A stretch of DNA of 7,716 nt, from contig CALBUD010000057.1 of NCBI GenBank assembly GCA_937968065.1, positions 1-7,716 of the forward strand, read 5' to 3'. A program made the position numbers and the translations under genes. The first letter of the stretch is position 1. Each line of letters opens with the position of its first letter. Shown in pieces: positions 1 to 7,716 of this stretch. Under the pieces are notes generated by a model that saw nothing but the letters and a program-made list of their open reading frames with translations, was not told the origin of the DNA and ran no database searches. The stretch is from Candidatus Iainarchaeum sp. GTDB lineage: Archaea; Iainarchaeota; Iainarchaeia; Iainarchaeales; CSSED10-239.

Positions 1-130
1 TTAATTTATTTTTTATTTTATTTTTATTTATCTTTTATTTTTTAAAAAAATAACTATTAAAGAAATATATAATATACAAAAGAAATATAAAAACTTTGTT
101 AAAACAAATAGTTTTAAAGAACTGTTTAAA

Positions 131-160
131 CATATATATTTAGTAAAAGATATATTTTAA
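131..160 (+). promoter_or_regulatory. Candidate archaeal TATA-box region upstream of the fusion gene
   Basis: ATATATATTTAG (132-143) and GATATATTTTA (149-159) lie 15-40 nt upstream of the ATG at 173. No Shine-Dalgarno-like GGAGG is present, which fits a short-leader or leaderless mRNA. In DNA this AT-rich, TATA-like strings are common, so the exact box is not resolvable by eye. Confidence 0.25.
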
Positions 161-172
161 AAAAAAGAAAAA

Positions 173-2278
173 ATGTGCTCAATAACTGGACTTGTTAATG
201 TTTTTGAAAGTAAACAAAAAATAATTAAATCATTAGAAATTCTTAAAAATAGAGGAAATGATAATTATGGTGTTTTTTCTAATGGTAATATAATTAATCA
301 TACAAACATTCAAGATTTTAGAAAAGAAAAAATAGAAGATGGAGTTGTTTTAGGACACACACTTTTTTCAGTTGTTGGAAAAGTTCTTCAACCTATAAAA
401 GAAAAAGAAAGTGTTTTAGTTTCAAATTGTGAGATATATAATTATAAAGAACTTTCTAAAAAATATAAGATAACTTCAAAAAACGATTCTGATTTTATAC
501 TTAAAGCTATTGAAAAAAAAGGGCTTTCTGTAATTGATGAGTTTTCAGGTCCTTTTGCTATAGCTTATCTTAAAAAAAATATACTTTATCTAAGAAGAGA
601 TGTTTTAGGAATCAAACCTTTATGGTATACTTTTACAAAAGAAAGTTTTGCATTTTCTTCTGAAAAAAAAGTTTTAAAAGAAATTGGTTTTGAAAATGTT
701 TTTTTTCTAGAACCTAGAAAAGAACTTTTTTATGATATCTTAAAAAAGAAAATAAAAATAAAAGAGGTTTCTTTCTATAAAATAAAACCAAAAAAGACAT
801 CCGTCCAAGAAATATATCAAAAACTTGAAGATGCTGTTTTAAAAAGAATTCCTAAAAACCAAAAAATCGCTCTTCTTTATAGCTCAGGAATTGATTCGTT
901 AATCTTAGCAAAAATATTTAAAAATAACAACATACCTTTTAAAGCATATTTTGCATATTCAAGAGAAGAAAAAAAACCAAAAGATCTTATAAATATTCAA
1001 GAAACTGAAAAAAATTCTCTTGATTGGATAATGGTTAAAAAAATACCTGTTTCAAAAAAAGAAATTAAAAAAACTTTACCTTTACTTGTAAATTTAATAG
1101 AATCTTCAAACCCTGTAAAGATAGGTGTTTCCTTGCCTATTTATTTTGCATCTAAAAAAGCAAGAGAAGAAGGATGTAGAGTGGTTTTTTCAGGTCTTGG
1201 AGCAGATGAATTGTTTGCAGGATATCATAGATTTAAAGAATCTACAAATATTTTAAAAGATAGTATAAATCTTTTATATCAAATGCATGAAAATGATCTT
1301 TATAGAGATGATATTATTTGTATGAACAACAACATAGAACTTAGACTTCCATATCTTGATAAAGATTTAATAGAAGAATCATTTAATCTTAAAGATTCTG
1401 AAAAAATAAATAAAAAAGAAAATAAGATAGTTTTAAGAAAAATTGGAAAAAAGATAGGACTTTTAAAAAAAGATTATAAAAGAGAAAAAACTGCTGCACA
1501 GTATGGAAGTGGTTTTGATAAAAGTTTAGAAAGACTTGCAAAAGAAAATGGTTTTAAAAATAAATCAGAATATCTTAAAAGCTTTTCAAAAAATGAAAAT
1601 CTTAAATTAGGATGTTTATTCTCTGGAGGTAAAGATTCAAATCTTTCTTTAGAAATTATGAAATCACAAAATTATAAAATATCTTGTCTGTTAACAATGA
1701 TTCCTGAAAATTCAGATTCTTATATGTTTCAAAAAACTAATTTAAAGATACTAACGCTTCAATCAAACTCTTTAGAAATACCTTTAGTTATTCAGAAAAC
1801 AAAAGGAGAAAAAGAAGAAGAACTAAAAGATTTAAAAAAACTTATTAAAAAAGCAAAAGAAAAATATAATCTACAAGGAATTGTAACAGGTGCTATAAAA
1901 AGTAATTATCAAAGAGAAAGAATACAAGAGATATGTAACTCTTTAGGCCTTAGAACGTTTTCTCCTCTTTGGAACAGAACACAAGAAAGTATACTTCAAG
2001 ATATCTTGGACAAAGGCTTTGAAACCATAATTGTTAAGATTGCAGGAAAAGGCCTTGATTCTTCTTGGCTTGGAAAGAAAATAGACATAGAGACTTTTAA
2101 AAGATTAAAAGAGATAAACAAAAAACACGGATTTAACATTGCTGGAGAGGGTGGAGAGTATGAAACAATTGTTTTGAACGCTCCTTCTTTTAAGAAAAAA
2201 ATAAAAATTTTAAAATCTAAAAAAAATATAGAAAATGAAATGACTGGTTATTTAGATATTTTAAAAATAGAAAATTAA
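173..2278 (+). CDS. Tri-domain fusion protein: class-II (Ntn) glutamine amidotransferase + asparagine-synthetase-B-type PP-loop synthetase + diphthine--ammonia ligase (Dph6/MJ0570-type ATP_bind_4 domain)
   Basis: Uninterrupted 701-aa ORF. N-terminal module: MCSITG (Cys2 nucleophile; E. coli AsnB starts MCSIFG), SNCEIYNYKEL (cf. NGEIYN), NDSDFIL, GPFAIAY, RRDVLGIKPLWY (cf. RD.LGI.PLY). Middle module: LLYSSGIDS (PP-loop, cf. SGGLDS), VVFSGLGADELFAGY (cf. LSGEGSDEVFGGY), YRDD..NNNIELRLPYLD, KIVLRK. C-terminal module: LGCLFSGGKDS (PP-loop), LLTMIPENSDSYMFQ, GIVTGAIKSNYQRERIQEICNSLGL.TFSPLW, AGEGGEYETIVLNAP. The C-terminal strings are the hallmarks of archaeal diphthine-ammonia ligase / MJ0570-family proteins. 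Confidence 0.85.
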   Translation: MCSITGLVNVFESKQKIIKSLEILKNRGNDNYGVFSNGNIINHTNIQDFRKEKIEDGVVLGHTLFSVVGKVLQPIKEKESVLVSNCEIYNYKELSKKYKITSKNDSDFILKAIEKKGLSVIDEFSGPFAIAYLKKNILYLRRDVLGIKPLWYTFTKESFAFSSEKKVLKEIGFENVFFLEPRKELFYDILKKKIKIKEVSFYKIKPKKTSVQEIYQKLEDAVLKRIPKNQKIALLYSSGIDSLILAKIFKNNNIPFKAYFAYSREEKKPKDLINIQETEKNSLDWIMVKKIPVSKKEIKKTLPLLVNLIESSNPVKIGVSLPIYFASKKAREEGCRVVFSGLGADELFAGYHRFKESTNILKDSINLLYQMHENDLYRDDIICMNNNIELRLPYLDKDLIEESFNLKDSEKINKKENKIVLRKIGKKIGLLKKDYKREKTAAQYGSGFDKSLERLAKENGFKNKSEYLKSFSKNENLKLGCLFSGGKDSNLSLEIMKSQNYKISCLLTMIPENSDSYMFQKTNLKILTLQSNSLEIPLVIQKTKGEKEEELKDLKKLIKKAKEKYNLQGIVTGAIKSNYQRERIQEICNSLGLRTFSPLWNRTQESILQDILDKGFETIIVKIAGKGLDSSWLGKKIDIETFKRLKEINKKHGFNIAGEGGEYETIVLNAPSFKKKIKILKSKKNIENEMTGYLDILKIEN
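176..742 (+). other. Domain: AsnB-type N-terminal nucleophile (class II) glutaminase, residues ~2-190
   Basis: Cys immediately follows the initiator Met. NCEIYN and DSD motifs retain the Asn/Glu/Asp positions that bind glutamine in E. coli AsnB, and RD.LGIKPL is present. The usual H-x-R-L motif reads HTLF (see findings). Confidence 0.75.
785..1582 (+). other. Domain: asparagine-synthetase-type PP-loop ATP pyrophosphatase, residues ~205-470
   Basis: SSGIDS at 881-898, SGLGADELFAGY, RDD....ELRLPYLD and KIVLRK occur in the same order and approximate spacing as in AsnB-family synthetase domains. Confidence 0.75.
1601..2275 (+). other. Domain: diphthine--ammonia ligase (Dph6 / ATP_bind_4 / MJ0570 family), residues 477-701
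   Basis: SGGKDS at 1622-1639, then DSYMF, TGAI.S.YQ..RI..IC..LGL...SPLW and GEGGEYET..L.AP. The ~225-aa length matches stand-alone archaeal Dph6. LKLGCLFSGGKDS aligns to the typical N-terminus MK...L.SGGKDS, but a Leu codon (CTT) occupies the place of the start codon. Confidence 0.8.
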
Positions 2279-2299
2279 ATTTTGATCTAAACAAATAAT

Positions 2300-2866
2300 C
2301 TACTTAAAATCAATATCGTCTATCTTTTCTTCTTCTTTAACTTCTTTATACCCTTCAAGAAGAGAATCTCTTTTAATTGATTTTAAAACTGTTGAGTGTT
2401 TTGCACCTGAAAGAATCTTTTCAATAGCCTCTCTTGCACTTTTAATTCTTTCTTCATCTCCAATAACAGAAACTGTTTTACCATAAACAGAAATTATACA
2501 ATTATATTTTTTTTCAATAATTTGTTTTATTCTTCCTTCTCTTCCTATAACTCTTCCTTTTACTTGTGTATGTCTATGTTTTGAATGTTTTACATAATCG
2601 TCTATTGGTATTATCTCTAAAGAAAAATTATCTTTTAAAAGCTTATAAGCATTTTCAGGAGAAAAACCTCTTGCAATTGCAGAAACGATGTTTTTTGCAA
2701 CATGCACTTCAAAAAAAGATTTATCTGAAGAGATTGTAACTTCACTTAAAGTAGAATCAATTTCTATCTTTGTTTTTGTTTTTCTTTGAATCTCTCTTTT
2801 TACAGTTCCGTTAGGACCAATAACAACAGGAAGTCTGTTATAACCCACTCTAACTATCTCTTCCAT
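2300..2866 (-). CDS. Two-KH-domain RNA-binding protein, archaeal Dim2/Pno1-like (COG1094-type) small-subunit ribosome biogenesis factor
   Basis: KH1: VVIGPNGTVKREIQRKTKTKIEID (GxxG). Linker: AKNIVSAIARGFSPENAYKLL. KH2: KGRVIGREGRIKQIIEKKYNCIISVYGKTVSVIG, then AREAIEKILSGAKHSTV. This pattern matches aDim2p-family proteins. The start overlaps the rio1 stop by 17 nt, the arrangement expected for the conserved aIF1A-Rio1-KH string. Confidence 0.8.
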   Translation of the reverse strand: MEEIVRVGYNRLPVVIGPNGTVKREIQRKTKTKIEIDSTLSEVTISSDKSFFEVHVAKNIVSAIARGFSPENAYKLLKDNFSLEIIPIDDYVKHSKHRHTQVKGRVIGREGRIKQIIEKKYNCIISVYGKTVSVIGDEERIKSAREAIEKILSGAKHSTVLKSIKRDSLLEGYKEVKEEEKIDDIDFK

Positions 2867-3587
2867 ATATCTCTTCCTTTCTTTTTTTAAGATCTTCTAA
2901 AAAAGAATCATAAGTGGTATTTTTTTTAGGAAACTTTTTATTTAAAAAATCAGTAATATTAATAATATCTCTTTTTAAAAAATCTTTTGATTTTGAATGA
3001 CTGTAAACAACCGCTTGCCCCATATCAAAAACAGTTATCTCTTCTGTTTCAGGATTGATTAATATATTGTATGCTGAAAAATCAGCATGAACTAACTTTG
3101 CACCATAAAGCATCTTTGCATAATTATCTATTATTTGAGGATATACTTTTTCAAAAGAAAATTTATGTTCTGAAAGTTTAGGAAAAGGAATTCCATTTTT
3201 ATCTCCAATAAAAGACATAACAATAATATTTTTTTCTTTTGCAATAACTATTGGAACTTTAACACCTACCTTTAAACAAAGAGAAAGATTTCTATATTCT
3301 TTTGAAGCCCAGATTAAAAATAATTCTCTTTTTTCTTTTGATATTTTTTTAAATCTATAATCTCCTTTGATATATTTATCCATGTTTTTAAAATTAGAAG
3401 TTTCTATCTTATATATCTTTAAAGCTAAAGGAGTATCTTTTAAAAAACCTAAAAAAGTAATTGCTTCTTTACCACTTGAGATTGGTGAGTTGATGGTGTC
3501 TATAATATTGTTTTTTGATAACTTAAAAATAGCTTCATGTGTTCTGTTATCAAAAACATAACCTTCAACTTTTCTTTTTTCAATCAT
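2850..3587 (-). CDS. rio1: RIO-type serine/threonine protein kinase, Rio1 class (no N-terminal wHTH)
   Basis: ISSGKEA (cf. Rio1 STGKEA nucleotide loop), ALKIYK (catalytic Lys), WASKEYRNL, catalytic loop LVHADFSAYNILI (cf. LVHGDLSEYN), and metal-binding VFDMGQAV (cf. IDxxQ). At 245 aa with no winged-helix extension, it is Rio1 rather than Rio2. Confidence 0.85.
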   Translation of the reverse strand: MIEKRKVEGYVFDNRTHEAIFKLSKNNIIDTINSPISSGKEAITFLGFLKDTPLALKIYKIETSNFKNMDKYIKGDYRFKKISKEKRELFLIWASKEYRNLSLCLKVGVKVPIVIAKEKNIIVMSFIGDKNGIPFPKLSEHKFSFEKVYPQIIDNYAKMLYGAKLVHADFSAYNILINPETEEITVFDMGQAVVYSHSKSKDFLKRDIINITDFLNKKFPKKNTTYDSFLEDLKKRKEEIYGRDS

Positions 3588-3619
3588 TTATAATCTTTTT
3601 TTTTAAGAAAAAATAGTAA

Positions 3620-3976
3620 TTATTTTCTTTTTTGATAGTTGCTTTGAGAAGTACTTTGAGCGTGTTTATACATTTCTTTTAAAGCTCCTCTTCTCTCAAG
3701 AGCAGAAGTTTGAAAACCTAAGTATCTCCAAATAACATCTCCTTTTGTTGGTTGAAAATCCCAAAGTTTAACAATAACAAGATCTCCTTGTTTTATCCAG
3801 ATATGTTTAAACATTTTTCCTGGAATTCTACAAATTCTTTCTTTTCCATCTTCACACATTATAGAGATGTTATTAACACCCATAAGTTGAGTTACAACTC
3901 CAAACATTTCTAAATCTTTTTGATTTGGAAGTCTTAATCTCTTATTTATTTGTTCATCATTATTTTCTGTTTCCAA
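3620..3976 (-). CDS. eif1a: Translation initiation factor aIF1A (S1-like OB fold)
   Basis: RLRLPNQKDLEMFGVVTQLMGVNNISIMCEDGKERICRIPGKMFKHIWIKQGDLVIVKLWDFQPTKGDVIWRY matches the a/eIF1A core (R.P...E.FG.V...LG......C.DG..R...IPGKM.K..WI..GD.V.V..WDFQ..K.D...RY). The 118-aa size is appropriate. Confidence 0.9.
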   Translation of the reverse strand: METENNDEQINKRLRLPNQKDLEMFGVVTQLMGVNNISIMCEDGKERICRIPGKMFKHIWIKQGDLVIVKLWDFQPTKGDVIWRYLGFQTSALERRGALKEMYKHAQSTSQSNYQKRK

Positions 3977-3987
3977 AATTTAATCAA

Positions 3988-3991
3988 CTCC
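3988..3991 (-). promoter_or_regulatory. Possible Shine-Dalgarno element for aIF1A
   Basis: The minus strand reads AAAGGAGTTGATTAAATT-ATG. GGAG sits about 11 nt before the start codon, immediately after the stop of the DUF424-like gene. Spacing is slightly long, and other genes in the string lack a comparable motif. Confidence 0.3.
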
Positions 3992-3994
3992 TTT

Positions 3995-4285
3995 TTATAT
4001 TTTATAGATTTGTACATGAGGCACATCTTCTATATAGATAATTATATCTTCTTTAATTATTTTTTTATTAAGAAGTAAAGCACAGATTTTTTTTCCAAAA
4101 ATATTTGCAGAATCACAATCATTAAGATGTTTTATAATCTCTTCAATAGCTATCTCTGAAGTTCCATAAAAATCTTTAGAAAAATGAATTTCAAAATCTT
4201 TAGTGATTATTGTTTTTCCAAGAAGTTCTTTATCACAAGACGCAAATATTTTCATTCCTGAAATATTATGTACTTTACCAATCAT
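3995..4285 (-). CDS. Uncharacterised conserved archaeal protein, DUF424 / COG2412-like
   Basis: The 96-aa ORF carries the pattern KVH...G....ASCDKELLGK.......I..S..FYG.......E....L......NI.G...........I.......I..VPH.QIY. From memory this matches the DUF424 family (KVH..G..V.AVCDEELLGK..., FYGG, VPHAQI). The family assignment is from recall only. Confidence 0.6.
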   Translation of the reverse strand: MIGKVHNISGMKIFASCDKELLGKTIITKDFEIHFSKDFYGTSEIAIEEIIKHLNDCDSANIFGKKICALLLNKKIIKEDIIIYIEDVPHVQIYKI

Positions 4286-4298
4286 ATTTATTCTTAAA

Positions 4299-4736
4299 TT
4301 ATAGTTTAGCTAGTGGTGTAATTGCACCACATGCTGAACATTTTAAAACCTTTACATTATTTTGAGTAACTATCTCTGTATCTGGTTTTTTACAAGCTGA
4401 ACAAAGCACAAATAGTTTTATGTATTTTTCTAAAATTTGATTTACTTTTTGATTATTAAAAATACCACTTAATATCAAAGTATTGTTTTGAATAGTTGAG
4501 GAAGTTGATATTTCTTTCATAACAAACTTATAAAGTTGAGATTCTTCTCTTTTTAAATCTTTTGCATTTTTTGAAAAGTTTTTCCAGATAGTTTGTTTTC
4601 CTTGAACAATTGACTCAGCTGTAGGAAGTTCAAATCTTGTGTTTTCTAAAGTTTTTGCTGGAAGAGACATGTAAAGCCTATCAAGTAACTTATTATAATC
4701 TAATGGATTTTCATCTATTGTTTTTTCTTTAACCAT
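4299..4736 (-). CDS. eif2b: Translation initiation factor aIF2 beta subunit
   Basis: The N-terminal YNKLLDRLYMSLP....RFELP..........T...NF matches the a/eIF2-beta helical/central domain. The C-terminal C4 zinc ribbon is CSACKKPDTEIV......LKCSACGA. The 145-aa size is typical. Confidence 0.85.
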   Translation of the reverse strand: MVKEKTIDENPLDYNKLLDRLYMSLPAKTLENTRFELPTAESIVQGKQTIWKNFSKNAKDLKREESQLYKFVMKEISTSSTIQNNTLILSGIFNNQKVNQILEKYIKLFVLCSACKKPDTEIVTQNNVKVLKCSACGAITPLAKL

Positions 4737-4805: not shown

Positions 4806-5762
4806 TTATATTAAAAAAGTAATTGTTAAAACAATTACAATCACCATAAACAAAGCTTGCAAAGGAAGAGCAGGCATTGCTTTTAAGTTTCTTACCTTTA
4901 AGATATAAAATGTTAAAAACAAACCAATTAAGGAAGAGATCCATAATAAAATAAGAACTAAGATAATTATGTTTAAAGGTAAAAGATTAAGTAGATAGAA
5001 ATAAAGAGAAGAAGAAACAACTAAAGGAATAACAATATCTCCTGCTCCTAATTGATAAACTCTTTCTTTTGAAGGAATATAAAAGATTAAAGCCATTTTT
5101 GTTTTTGAAAAAGTTTTTGCTAAATCAATCATGTGTTTTGTATAAAAAACAGCAATAATATCATATATTGATAAAAGAATGATAAACACAATTACAGGAA
5201 TAATTCCTAAAGAAAGACCAATAATTGCACCAGCTCCAGCAATTGCAATTCCTAAAAAAATATTATTATACCACATTATGGTTTTTTTATATTCTGGGGC
5301 ATTTTTTTCTAAAAGATATTTTGTAAATAAAAGAAGAACTGCAAGGTATAAACCAATAACATATAATAAAAACACATCAAAAACTATAACCATTCCAAAA
5401 AATAAAGCAATATATTCAAAAAACTTTAGATATCCTGTTCTTTTTGAAAATCTTTTTATTAAAAGAATTATTCCTGTTATTAAAAGTATTTGACCAATAA
5501 TAAATAAAGCATTAACTATATCATTAGGATCATCAGTTATTAAAGTAATTCTTAAATCTTCAAAAGAAGAATAGTAAGAGAATGTTAAAAAACCAATAAC
5601 TTGAATAATTATAAAAATTATTAAAAAGAAAATTATGAATTTTGAAGAAAGTTTTTTTCCTTCAATTTTAGAAGAATCTTTTTTATAAGTTTCTTTTTTA
5701 GAAAGTTTTTCTTTCTTTATAACTTTTTTTTTCTTTAAAGGTTTTTTTAGATCTTTTTTCAT
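4806..5762 (-). CDS. Presenilin / signal-peptide-peptidase family (A22) intramembrane aspartyl protease homologue, about 9 TM segments
   Basis: All three family signatures occur in order, each within a hydrophobic segment: YD (LLSIYDIIAVFY, Asp201, codon 5160-5162), GxGD (LGAGDIVIPL, Asp242, codon 5037-5039) and PAL (MPALPLQ, residues 297-299). About nine hydrophobic stretches follow a Lys-rich ~41-aa N-terminus. Confidence 0.75.
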   Translation of the reverse strand: MKKDLKKPLKKKKVIKKEKLSKKETYKKDSSKIEGKKLSSKFIIFFLIIFIIIQVIGFLTFSYYSSFEDLRITLITDDPNDIVNALFIIGQILLITGIILLIKRFSKRTGYLKFFEYIALFFGMVIVFDVFLLYVIGLYLAVLLLFTKYLLEKNAPEYKKTIMWYNNIFLGIAIAGAGAIIGLSLGIIPVIVFIILLSIYDIIAVFYTKHMIDLAKTFSKTKMALIFYIPSKERVYQLGAGDIVIPLVVSSSLYFYLLNLLPLNIIILVLILLWISSLIGLFLTFYILKVRNLKAMPALPLQALFMVIVIVLTITFLI

Positions 5763-5788: not shown

Positions 5789-6316
5789 CTATTTTCTTTT
5801 AACAAACTTTAAAACAGTTCTTGGTTTCTCTTTTCCATCTTTTGAAAGATAAGGTTTATTTTTAAGAGGATCTTTTTCAAGAACATATCTTCCTTTAGAA
5901 GTTTTTTGTTTTCTGTTTGCAATAAATTCATTTATGCTATACATTCTGTTATTTACAACAGGTCTTCCTGAAAAAAGAGTAACCCTTTTTTTTGCTCTAA
6001 GATATGCAACCACTCTTAATTTTAGTTTCTTTCCATATCCTTTATCTCTGTATTCTTTTAAAATATATTGATTTTCAGAAAAATATTTATTATCATACCT
6101 TAAACCTTGATTAAAACCTATTGGTTTTCCATCTTTTAATATTAAAAAAAACTCAATGTTTTGTTTGTTTGAAAAAAGATAAGTGGTTAATCTACTTATA
6201 TAGTTTTTTTCAACAACTTCATTTTCATATTTAATCTTATGAATTTCTTTTAAAAACTCTTTATTTTCTAAAAGATCTGAGAGATTATTAATATCATAAT
6301 GTTTATAAGAAATCAT
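5789..6316 (-). CDS. Divergent GNAT-family N-acetyltransferase-like protein with a basic C-terminal tail
   Basis: ILKDGKPIGF (beta4-like) is followed by YILKEYRDKGYGKKLKLRVVAYLRAKK, which contains the GNAT motif-A signature R/Q-x-x-G-x-G/A (RDKGYG, 6032-6049). NNRMYSINEF resembles the N..A...Y...GF segment. Residues ~135-175 are Lys/Arg-rich. The assignment rests on one short motif plus a secondary-structure-like pattern only. Confidence 0.45.
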   Translation of the reverse strand: MISYKHYDINNLSDLLENKEFLKEIHKIKYENEVVEKNYISRLTTYLFSNKQNIEFFLILKDGKPIGFNQGLRYDNKYFSENQYILKEYRDKGYGKKLKLRVVAYLRAKKRVTLFSGRPVVNNRMYSINEFIANRKQKTSKGRYVLEKDPLKNKPYLSKDGKEKPRTVLKFVKRK

Positions 6317-6377: not shown

Positions 6378-7716
6378 TTAAAAAGATTCAGGGTCAGTTG
6401 CTTTTAAAAGACCAGACCTAGGTTCATAAACATCACCTAATTGTTTAAGTTTTTTAATAGCATCCATAACTTTTTCTTTTTGATGTCCGTCTTTTTCAAC
6501 AATATCTAAAAGCTCTTTAACAGTTATTGGTTCTGTAACTGAAAGTTCTTTTATAAGTTTTAAAATAACTTTTATAAAATTTCTCTCACTTTGAGATTGA
6601 CCTGTCTGAAGAATATCAATATCAATCTTTCCTGTCTCTTTATCCATTGCAACTTGCTCTAAAGAAGTTTTAAAAACTCTAATTGCTCTCTCTGCATCTC
6701 CTTCATCAATTGTTGTTTTTAATTTTATTTTTGCACTTGCTTCAGAAAGTCTTATTAGACCTTCAAGCTGTCTTGGAGTTGCTGTAAAGCTTCTTGATTT
6801 ACGACCCATATCTCTTAACTCAACATAAAATTTTAAAATTAAATCAGAAGCATTTTCTGTTAAAACAGGTCTTAGGTTTTGTCTTGAATAAGCAACATAT
6901 TTTTTAAAAATATTTGGGTCAATAACAGGTAATATTTGTTTTTCAATCTCATCAAACTCTTCTTTTGTTATTGATTTATCTCTTCCTGAAAGTTTTTCTG
7001 CAAAAGCTTGTGTTTTTAAAACATGCTTTGCAATATCAGAATCTAGTTTTTTATCTAAAAGATCTGGAATTACAAAATATAAATCAAATCTTGATAATAA
7101 AGAAAAAGGAAGATCTATTTGTTCTAAAGGAGGTTTATAAGGATCAAATCTATTATATTTTGGATTTGCTGCTGCTAAAACAGAAGTATCAGCTCTAAAT
7201 TTACTGTAAAGACCAGCTTTTGAAACAGAAACTGTTGATTGTGCCATTGCTTCGTGAAGAGAAGATCTATCATCTGTTGATATTTTATCAAACTCATCAA
7301 TCATTGCAATACCACCACTTGCTAAAATAATAGCACCAGCTTTTAATGTCCAACCACCCTCTCCATATTCATCTTTAACAGCTGAAACTGTAAGACCTGC
7401 ACCAGAAACTGTTTTTCCTGCAACATATATACTTTTTGGAGCTAAGATGTTTGCATATTCTAAAAGTTTAGATTTTCCTGTAGAAGGATCACCAACTAAA
7501 AGAACATGTATGTTTCCTCTAAATTTTTGTTTTGCTATTTCTTTTTTAACACCACCAAACATTTGTAAAGTAATTGCTTCTTTTACAACTTCGTGTCCAA
7601 AAATGTTTGGAGCTACAGATTTTGATAAAAGTTCATAAATATTTTCTTTTTTTGAAAGATTTTTAATTTCTTGTTCTTCTTCAAAAGATATTTTTAATTC
7701 TTCATACTCTTGATCT
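6378..7716 (-). CDS. mcm: MCM replicative helicase, AAA+ and C-terminal winged-helix portion (5' end lies beyond the window)
   Basis: Walker A GDPSTGKS, Walker B AMIDEFDK, sensor-1 AAANP, arginine finger SRFDL, sensor-2 TPRQLEGLIRLSEA. The frame stays open from the Met at 7562 to the window edge and encodes DQEYEELKISFEEEQEIKNLSKKENIYELLSKSVAPNIFGHEVVKEAITLQMFGG. This is the conserved MCM segment (cf. IAPSIYGHE.IK.A..L.LFGG) preceding the Walker A, so the Met at 7562 is internal. Confidence 0.95.
   Translation of the reverse strand, partial: DQEYEELKISFEEEQEIKNLSKKENIYELLSKSVAPNIFGHEVVKEAITLQMFGGVKKEIAKQKFRGNIHVLLVGDPSTGKSKLLEYANILAPKSIYVAGKTVSGAGLTVSAVKDEYGEGGWTLKAGAIILASGGIAMIDEFDKISTDDRSSLHEAMAQSTVSVSKAGLYSKFRADTSVLAAANPKYNRFDPYKPPLEQIDLPFSLLSRFDLYFVIPDLLDKKLDSDIAKHVLKTQAFAEKLSGRDKSITKEEFDEIEKQILPVIDPNIFKKYVAYSRQNLRPVLTENASDLILKFYVELRDMGRKSRSFTATPRQLEGLIRLSEASAKIKLKTTIDEGDAERAIRVFKTSLEQVAMDKETGKIDIDILQTGQSQSERNFIKVILKLIKELSVTEPITVKELLDIVEKDGHQKEKVMDAIKKLKQLGDVYEPRSGLLKATDPESF

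Follow-up and report, generated by a model that had tools for sequence, protein, structure and literature searches.

An AsnB-like amidotransferase fused to Dph6 in archaea: a candidate single-chain diphthamide synthetase

The DNA described here (the window: 7,716 nucleotides (nt), positions 1 to 7,716 of contig CALBUD010000057.1, assembly GCA_937968065.1, from Candidatus Iainarchaeum sp.) holds a complete gene for one protein of 701 amino acids (aa). In this protein, a class II glutamine amidotransferase-like domain and a PP-loop domain resembling that of asparagine synthetase B (AsnB) stand in front of Dph6, the diphthine--ammonia ligase. Diphthamide is a universal modification of elongation factor 2 (EF-2) in archaea and eukaryotes and the target of diphtheria toxin, and Dph6 works with free ammonium in vitro. 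The fusion is a real and widely conserved archaeal gene, and its product may be a single-chain diphthamide synthetase in which the AsnB-like pair delivers nitrogen to Dph6.

The architecture and the idea that glutamine is the nitrogen source have been known since 2012. De Crécy-Lagard et al. (2012, Biol Direct 7:32, PMC3541065, section 11) described COG0367/AsnB, that is, a class II glutamine amidotransferase (GAT-II) plus an Asn_synthase PP-loop domain, N-terminal to DUF71 in Methanohalophilus mahii, Methanosalsum zhilinae, and “Ca. Nanosalinarum sp. J07AB56” (a nanohaloarchaeon, DPANN). They placed the fusion in “a few Archaea” and reasoned that the NH3 for Dph6 could come from glutamine hydrolysis. 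The reviewer L. Aravind asked in the same article which of the two PP-loop domains takes the NH3 and what the Asn-synthetase-like domain catalyses (PMC3541065). The window protein has the same modules in the same order on one polypeptide (GAT-II, Asn_synthase PP-loop, DUF71/Dph6) and invites the same proposal of glutamine-derived NH3 for Dph6; only the lineage differs, here a low-GC DPANN contig. The possible novelty raised by the initial annotation, which was made from the sequence alone, thus falls away, as both the architecture and the Rosetta-stone inference are in the 2012 paper. The residue-level analysis, the loss of Arg49 and Glu348 (E. coli AsnB numbering), and the glutaminase-less variants are absent from that paper and are reported here. 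A literature search found neither a biochemical test of glutamine-dependent Dph6 nor a study of what the archaeal AsnB-like paralogues do, and a 2024 survey of archaeal gene fusion and fission makes no mention of the AsnB-like-Dph6 fusion.

The fusion gene and its three modules

The features of the window are listed in Table 1. A Pfam scan of the 701-aa protein places GATase_7/GATase_6 at residues 48-169, Asn_synthase from residue 214 (E=3e-33), and Diphthami_syn_2 (PF01902) at residues 480-699 (E=7e-61, 206 bits). This is the order that the initial annotation had expected when it read the open reading frame (ORF) as three modules, and the ORF list and the motif positions agree with it: SSGIDS lies at residues 237-242, SGLGADELFAGY at 340-351, SGGKDS at 484-489, and GEGGEYET at 658-665. 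The second module is without the ~70-residue C-terminal tail of E. coli AsnB. The junction had been described as free of start codons, with the first in-frame Met beyond the PP-loop of Dph6. A check of the codons confirms this, as residues 430-495 contain no in-frame ATG, GTG, or TTG and the first such codon is M496, past the second PP-loop.

Table 1. Features of the window in order of position
Feature	Position	Strand	Basis or remark
Complete three-module gene, 701 aa, N-terminus MCSITG	173..2278	+	ORF list; stop codon 2276-2278
Module 1, residues 1-205, class II (N-terminal nucleophile, Ntn) glutamine-amidotransferase-like	173..787	+	Pfam GATase_7/GATase_6; AsnB fold
Leu64 codon (= E. coli AsnB Arg49 / human ASNS Arg48)	362..364	+	alignment to 1ct9 and E. 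coli AsnB
Module 2, residues 206-475, AsnB-type PP-loop (adenylating) domain	788..1597	+	Pfam Asn_synthase
First PP-loop, S237-S-G-I-D-S242	881..898	+	S237, G239, D241, S242 invariant in 119 homologues and all architecture variants
Motif S340-G-L-G-A-D-E346 (E. coli SGEGSDE); Leu342 at the catalytic Glu348 position	1190..1210	+	alignment
Junction, residues 470-483, SFSKNENLKLGCLF; short, no internal start codon	1580..1621	+	
Module 3, residues 476-701, archaeal Dph6 (diphthine--ammonia ligase)	1598..2275	+	Pfam Diphthami_syn_2, TIGR03679
Second PP-loop, S484-G-G-K-D-S489	1622..1639	+	S, G, K, D, S invariant in 119 homologues
Dph6 signature E659-G-G-E-Y-E-T665 (PF0828 E183, E186, E188)	2147..2167	+	E659, E662, E664 invariant
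Two-KH-domain Dim2/KRR1-like protein	2300-2866	-	
RIO1 kinase	2850-3587	-	overlaps KH gene by 17 nt
aIF1A	3620-3976	-	TTG start in ORF list
DUF424	3995-4285	-	
aIF2beta	4299-4736	-	with the four genes above, a translation/ribosome-biogenesis block (2300-4736) conserved in archaea and convergent with fusion gene
Presenilin/signal-peptide-peptidase homologue	4806-5762	-	
GNAT acetyltransferase	5789-6316	-	
MCM, C-terminal part	6378-7562	-	P-loop match from profile position 40

An AlphaFold2 model built with 119 homologues as input is confident along the whole chain, with a predicted local distance difference test score (pLDDT) of 92.3 and a predicted template modelling score (pTM) of 0.88. The junction itself has a pLDDT of 89-93, and its residues N476 and L479 are nearly invariant across the homologues. 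The whole-chain pTM suggests that the modelled domains are held in a fixed arrangement. A Foldseek search with this model returned no solved structure with all three modules.

Conservation and distribution

A search of 5.8 billion proteins found an identical protein (100%, P0001) and more than 119 full-length relatives of ~680-735 aa with 43-72% identity. The same domain set is present in the 119 full-length homologues that were studied further, and several of the relatives already carry the NCBI or JGI name “diphthine--ammonia ligase.” The distribution was surveyed with one genome per GTDB species, which gave at least 519 relatives; work at the level of loci covered the best 78. Among these, all three modules are present in 60 of the 74 fused genes. 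The carriers include metagenome-assembled genomes (MAGs) of Woesearchaeota/Nanoarchaeota, Iainarchaeota (Diapherotrites), Micrarchaeota, and Altiarchaeota. They also include Methanolobus (among them the isolate M. bombayensis DSM 7082), Methanomethylovorans, Methanococcoides, the anaerobic methanotrophic (ANME) groups ANME-3 and ANME-1/Methanophagales, Syntrophoarchaeum, and some halobacterial MAGs. The nearest relative among the 78 loci is that of an uncultured archaeon MAG (L002; 67% protein identity), and the Methanosarcinales relatives, for example, in Methanolobus, have 41-43% identity across residues 1-679. A hunt for the same architecture across archaeal and DPANN genomes, proposed by the initial annotation, therefore finds it widely. 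The belief that archaeal Dph6 normally stands alone holds for most cultured archaea, but the fused form is common in DPANN and occurs in part of the Methanosarcinales. Korarchaeia, Geoarchaea, and most Asgard lineages have no dph genes.

This distribution also decides whether the gene could be an artefact in which two genes were joined by an assembly or sequencing indel. The junction contains a run of six A residues at position 1588, and the contig is short and metagenomic. However, more than 119 full-length homologues, obtained independently in many projects, keep one frame across the junction, as do 60 GTDB loci, including isolate genomes such as that of Methanolobus bombayensis DSM 7082. 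Because 119 homologues and 60 of 74 GTDB genes share the architecture, an indel at the A run is excluded; the chance that two separate genes underlie the ORF is vanishingly small, and this explanation was discarded.

The Dph6 module

Dph6 carries out an ATP-dependent amidation of diphthine (summarized in PMC3541065). The initial annotation had claimed a full-length Dph6 domain, and the profile for archaeal Dph6 bears this out: TIGR03679 scores 261.2 bits against a cut-off of 197.3, with all signature residues conserved. The paralogous PAB0415/TTX_0299 families remain far under their cut-offs (NF052346, 60.5 bits, and NF052347, 47.9 bits, each against 250). The C-terminal 225 residues match PF0828 and PH1257 by sequence (E=1e-49), and in Foldseek, the C-terminal part of the model lies on 2d13 and 3rk1 with template modelling (TM) scores of 0.92-0.95 and a root-mean-square deviation of 1.1-1.5 Å. 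The residues regarded as specific for Dph6 are S44, Y45, E78, Y103, Q104, E183, E186, and E188 of PF0828 (PMC3541065). Their equivalents, as well as SGGKDS, are invariant or nearly so in the 119 homologues. To judge by these scores and residues, the module is very probably a functional diphthine--ammonia ligase.

The genomic record of the carriers is consistent with such a role. M. mahii and M. zhilinae, both of which carry the fusion, are each listed with one DUF71 homologue (PMC3541065, Table S1), which presumably makes the fused copy their sole Dph6. DPANN genomes keep dph1/2 (often split), dph5, and dph6 (Narrowe et al. 2018, PMC6143161). Compared with the stand-alone enzymes (PF0828, 3rjz/3rk1; PH1257, 2d13), the PP-loop and the EGGExE signature are identical, but here 475 AsnB-like residues stand in front and Dph6 has no start codon of its own. 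Eukaryotic Dph6 (yeast YLR143W) likewise carries a fused ammonia source, at least as proposed for its C-terminal RidA/YjgF-like domains (PMC3541065). In that case, however, the accessory family is different and sits on the opposite side of Dph6, and the second PP-loop is absent. As a separate observation, PF28410.1 matches all of the fused proteins and neither of two proteins without Dph6 (P0036 and P0135), and it presumably covers part of the Dph6 region.

The AsnB-like half

The N-terminal 475 residues of the model superpose on E. coli AsnB (1ct9) and human ASNS with TM scores of 0.72-0.78 (0.78 for 1ct9), and the sequence match to 1ct9 has E=1.6e-22. Residue conservation was read from the 119 full-length homologues aligned with E. 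coli AsnB as translated from NC_000913, and E. coli numbering is used below unless the window protein is named. The glutaminase domain keeps Cys1 (in 118 of 119), Arg30, Asn74, Glu76, and Asp98; in the numbering of the window protein, Cys2 is found in 118 of 119 homologues and N85, E87, and D105 in about 119 of 119. Cys straight after Met1, the oxyanion-hole Asn, and the amino-group-binding Asp are all present, as expected of an Ntn amidotransferase. The intact nucleophile together with N85, E87, and D105 supports the prediction of an active glutaminase. In human ASNS, glutamine is recognized by a network of Arg48, Asn74, Gly75, Glu76, and Asp96 (PMC6748925). Two positions of this network are changed in the fusion family. 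E. coli Gly75, whose contact is made through the backbone, is Cys86, and Arg49, which holds the alpha-carboxylate of glutamine, is Leu64 in 119 of 119, followed mostly by His (H65). Glutamine as the donor is not assured because of this last replacement.

The PP-loop domain gives a similar picture of a conserved frame around an altered pocket. SxGxDS, Ser346, Gly347, Asp351 (D/E), Glu352, Tyr357, Asp384, Arg387, Lys429, and Lys449 are kept, and the residues among them that bind ATP or pyrophosphate (PPi), namely, S346, G347, D351 (D to E), E352, K429, and K449, are kept in all architecture variants. The acidic pocket residues D/E345, E346, and D375 of the window protein are also retained. By contrast with AsnB and human ASNS (6gq3), with which the two-domain fold, the N-terminal Cys, N74, E76, D98, the PP-loop, D351/E352, Y357, D384, R387, K429, and K449 are shared, the fusion has R49L, E348L, K376G/L, and an altered TTIR motif, and the C-terminal ~70 residues are replaced by Dph6. 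The catalytic Glu348 is Leu342 in 119 of 119 close homologues, and none of the 148 classified relatives has Glu at this position (it is taken by Leu, some other hydrophobic residue, or Gln). The equivalent human residue, Glu364, is conserved in known asparagine synthetases, and the E364A and E364Q enzymes are inactive even with NH4Cl (PMC6748925). Lys376 is Gly or Leu in the 119 homologues, in which the TTIR motif of the aspartate site is altered as well.

One could consider the N-terminal part an ordinary glutamine-dependent asparagine synthetase, which would make the protein a bifunctional AsnB/Dph6. Its top families are indeed asparagine synthases, TIGR01536 with 240 bits among them, the match to 1ct9 is good in both sequence and structure, and Cys1, N74, E76, D98, D384, R387, K429, and K449 are conserved. 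However, neither of the NCBIfam asparagine-synthase equivalogs is reached (TIGR01536, 240.5 against 267.1; NF006949, 186.3 against 499). Moreover, Glu348 is lost without exception, in a position where the human replacements are dead (PMC6748925), and Arg49, Lys376, and TTIR have changed along with it. The loss of Glu348, Lys376, and the aspartate-site motif argues that no canonical asparagine synthesis takes place, and on the cut-offs and these four changes, the ordinary synthetase was rejected as highly improbable. Since two defining features that were looked for are missing, the AsnB-like half is best described as working like asparagine synthetase B without being a member of it. Because the replacing residues are themselves invariant, the site looks like one that has been re-specified rather than one that has decayed. 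Of the N-terminal glutaminase and AsnB-like synthetase named in the initial annotation, the Ntn Cys and the PP-loop therefore stand, but a canonical AsnB does not. The channelling of ammonia to an adenylate of its own, as known from AsnB-type enzymes, is likewise not simply transferable, with Glu348 and Arg49 both Leu in 119 of 119.

Architecture variants

Residues 1-475 were searched exhaustively with HMMER against 1.84 billion cluster representatives, and the best 150 of the 363 matches at E<=1e-30 were classified by hidden Markov models of the modules. These comprise ~50 clusters with the glutaminase domain (GAT), PP-loop, and Dph6; ~90 with the GAT and PP-loop only, some of them truncated by contig ends (e.g., P0121); ~5-7 with the PP-loop and Dph6 and no GAT; and ~4-6 with the PP-loop only. 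A GAT joined to Dph6 without the PP-loop domain occurs neither among these best 150 clusters nor among the best 78 GTDB loci.

The glutaminase-less form with PP-loop and Dph6 is present at 8 of the best 78 loci (L053, L059, L064, L066, L067, L068, L070, and L075). Its genes encode ~480-520 aa (e.g., L067:7914-9416), and no GAT-like segment is found in any frame of the locus. Most of them have full-length nearest relatives, which argues for several independent losses of the glutaminase. An intermediate state is seen in the second-closest relative of the window among the 78 loci, which is also syntenic (L047:7806-9641): a GAT remnant of ~50 residues is left and the Cys is gone. Since the glutaminase is dispensable, the constant partner of Dph6 would be the AsnB-like PP-loop domain.

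The gene also occurs in split form at two loci, L063 (1489-3054) and L079, where the AsnB-like half and Dph6 are encoded by two ORFs that keep this order and lie side by side or overlap. At L079 (7755-9957, on the chromosome of Methanococcoides sp. FTZ1), the halves are in different frames and the N-terminus, MGRIAG, has no Cys nucleophile; a fission event, a pseudogene, or a sequencing error could account for this. Two longer versions were seen as well. P0137 (1005 aa) has an SMC_N/AAA_23 region in front of GAT (with its first ~20 residues missing), PP-loop, and Dph6, and is probably a chimera of gene calling or assembly. L017 has one 1037-aa ORF (40-3153) of GTPase, GAT, PP-loop, and Dph6, in which the Cys is N-terminal only if the protein is processed; it may be a real fusion or a read-through error.

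Stand-alone copies of the AsnB-like half fall into two groups. In DPANN, “asparagine synthase-related / DUF7411 family” proteins share L64/H65/C86/L342/G367/D375 with the fusion but have no Dph6 domain. Copies with the fusion's signature are found on a complete Woesearchaeota chromosome (L071, 490 aa) and on a 138-kb contig (L080). A sister clade, also stand-alone, in Methanothermobacter, Methanobrevibacter, Thermococcus, and Hydrothermarchaeota differs in having Gln, Asp, and Asn at positions 348, 376, and 384; its members are labelled “asparagine synthase-related” or “DUF7411 family” in their sources. No dph6 lies beside the stand-alone AsnB-like gene at L071, at L080/L081, in Methanothermobacter, or on a Thermococcus-like contig. 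In Methanothermobacter wolfeii (L082/L083:7001-8419, 8664-8880), a 71-aa gene with a weak Pfam match to GatC lies 245 bp downstream of the AsnB-like gene, a possible sign of a connection with tRNA-dependent asparagine formation.

Genomic neighbourhood

The G+C content of the window is extremely low, 18-32% when taken in 500-nt windows, as is typical of DPANN genomes (Woese-, Pace- or Nanoarchaeota-like). At its far end, the MCM gene probably runs on towards the window end. Translation-related surroundings had been noted in the initial annotation, and the block of aIF2beta, DUF424, aIF1A, RIO1, and KH genes does exist. However, its genes run on the strand opposite to the fusion, and among the best 78 loci, it accompanies the fusion only at L002 and L047. 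When 1107 neighbouring ORFs from these loci were clustered all against all, neither dph2 nor dph5 nor an EF-2 gene was among them. As the block is shared by only 2 of 78 loci and no dph2, dph5, or EF-2 gene is nearby, the argument from context is of little weight, and a functional meaning of the translation-related context was dropped.

Most frequent around the fusion are genes for a DRG GTPase, an MscS-like protein, a cytidylyltransferase, prefoldin, UPF0147, and peptidases. The DRG/Obg-type GTPase (365 aa; MMR_HSR1, MMR_HSR1_Xtn, and TGS) is the only recurrent one. It lies upstream on the same strand at 16 of the 62 loci with enough upstream sequence (L012:6841-7938, L014:6845-7945, L074, L051, L023, and 11 more), separated from the fusion gene by 29 bp-3.9 kb.

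How the modules may work together

The recurrent fusion in the same order, the short conserved linker, and the adjacent split forms (L063 and L079) suggest a functional link between the AsnB-like half and Dph6. The Rosetta-stone argument of the initial annotation is upheld to that extent; its choice of glutamine as the donor is less secure, given the replacement of Arg49 by Leu.

In the reading preferred here, to which a probability of roughly 40% may be given, the protein is a single-chain diphthamide synthetase, and the AsnB-like pair is the dedicated partner of Dph6 that delivers its nitrogen, with the two activities coupled. The Dph6 module would adenylate and amidate the diphthine carboxylate on archaeal EF-2 (aEF2) at the expense of ATP. 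Cys2 would hydrolyse an amide donor, probably glutamine, which would be bound in an unusual way since Arg49 is Leu. The ammonia would move through an AsnB-type intramolecular tunnel inside the PP-loop domain and be handed on to the rigidly attached Dph6 site, and the nucleotide at the AsnB-like PP-loop site would gate both glutaminase and tunnel. In lineages without the glutaminase, the core of PP-loop and Dph6 would take free ammonia. What speaks for the coupling is the constant order of GAT, PP-loop, and Dph6 in at least 60 GTDB loci and 119 database clusters from DPANN, the Methanosarcinales, and ANME-1. A GAT is never found with Dph6 in the absence of the PP-loop domain, and this fits a tunnel through that domain.

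Several points weigh against delivery of nitrogen to Dph6. To our knowledge, in every known structure of the AsnB family the tunnel leads to the PP-loop site of the same enzyme and no further. SxGxDS, S340, G341, E346, K418, and K439 of the window protein are invariant even in the glutaminase-less variants, and such an invariant ATP/PPi site suggests that the domain is a catalyst in its own right and not a passive conduit. The pocket residues that have been exchanged (L342, V319, K316, and L64) are invariant too, which suggests a new specific substrate, not decay. The glutaminase has been lost repeatedly with the PP-loop and Dph6 kept, and so glutamine nitrogen is not essential to the partnership; even where the glutaminase is present, the canonical contact to the alpha-carboxylate of glutamine has gone with Arg49. 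The same AsnB-like subfamily is often stand-alone, in two cases (L071 and L080) away from dph6. Finally, the literature search found no biochemical data.

The alternatives start from the same residues. In the main one, a tenable though doubtful explanation, the chain contains two amidation enzymes: Dph6 uses any ammonia, and the GAT and PP-loop form a self-contained amidotransferase, dependent on glutamine or ammonia, that adenylates and amidates another carboxylate, one that is not aspartate. The fusion would then reflect co-regulation or a shared macromolecular target (e.g., the translation apparatus), with no hand-over of ammonia. The ATP/PPi residues, which the AsnB-like domain keeps invariant in every variant, glutaminase-less ones too, agree with this, as do the replaced pocket residues, the invariance of which looks like neo-functionalisation. 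So do the many stand-alone GAT and PP-loop clusters (about half of the best 150 of 363, some contig-truncated), the copies without a nearby dph6 in the complete Woesearchaeota genome and on the 138-kb contig, and the stand-alone sister clade in methanogens and Thermococcus. Aravind had raised the possibility as a reviewer in 2012 (PMC3541065). However, the gene neighbourhoods yield no candidate substrate, Dph6 is never fused to a glutaminase alone, and co-regulation usually brings about less than a fusion that recurs across distant archaeal lineages with its order fixed and its junction rigid.

Another alternative, which is unlikely, makes the AsnB-like PP-loop a second catalytic centre working on the same EF-2 side chain as Dph6, where it would consume ATP and ammonia in a step beyond diphthamide, for example, from carboxamide to amidine. 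In a related version, judged very unlikely, the domain would act on the same side chain as Dph6, either in a second ATP-dependent step (to an amidine or nitrile) or by binding the diphthine betaine; Leu in place of Glu348 and the lack of Lys376 could suit a trimethylammonium group without a second carboxylate. Gene fusions mostly join consecutive steps of a pathway, and AsnB-like and other PP-loop enzymes form amidines and nitriles (PseA/WbpG-type, QueC). The pocket would allow it as well, with D/E345, E346, and D375 retained, E348 replaced by Leu, and K376 by Gly or Leu, and the core of PP-loop and Dph6 survives loss of the glutaminase. Against this, we know of no chemical evidence for an archaeal EF-2 modification beyond diphthamide, the argument from the pocket is drawn from sequence, and stand-alone copies exist. 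In a weaker form, EF-2 modification may have a dedicated component in the archaeal Leu348-type “asparagine synthase-related” clade as a whole, whether its members are fused or stand-alone.

Significance

The architecture itself is no surprise to the specialist. The fusion is, however, the only genomic hint that glutamine can feed the amidation of diphthine, and the residue-level results and the glutaminase-less variants sharpen the question put in 2012 about the role of the second PP-loop domain. There is also a practical side. The label “asparagine synthase (glutamine-hydrolysing)” on the fusions and on their stand-alone relatives is probably wrong, and such labels could mislead metabolic reconstructions of DPANN archaea, in which asparagine biosynthesis might be credited where it is absent.

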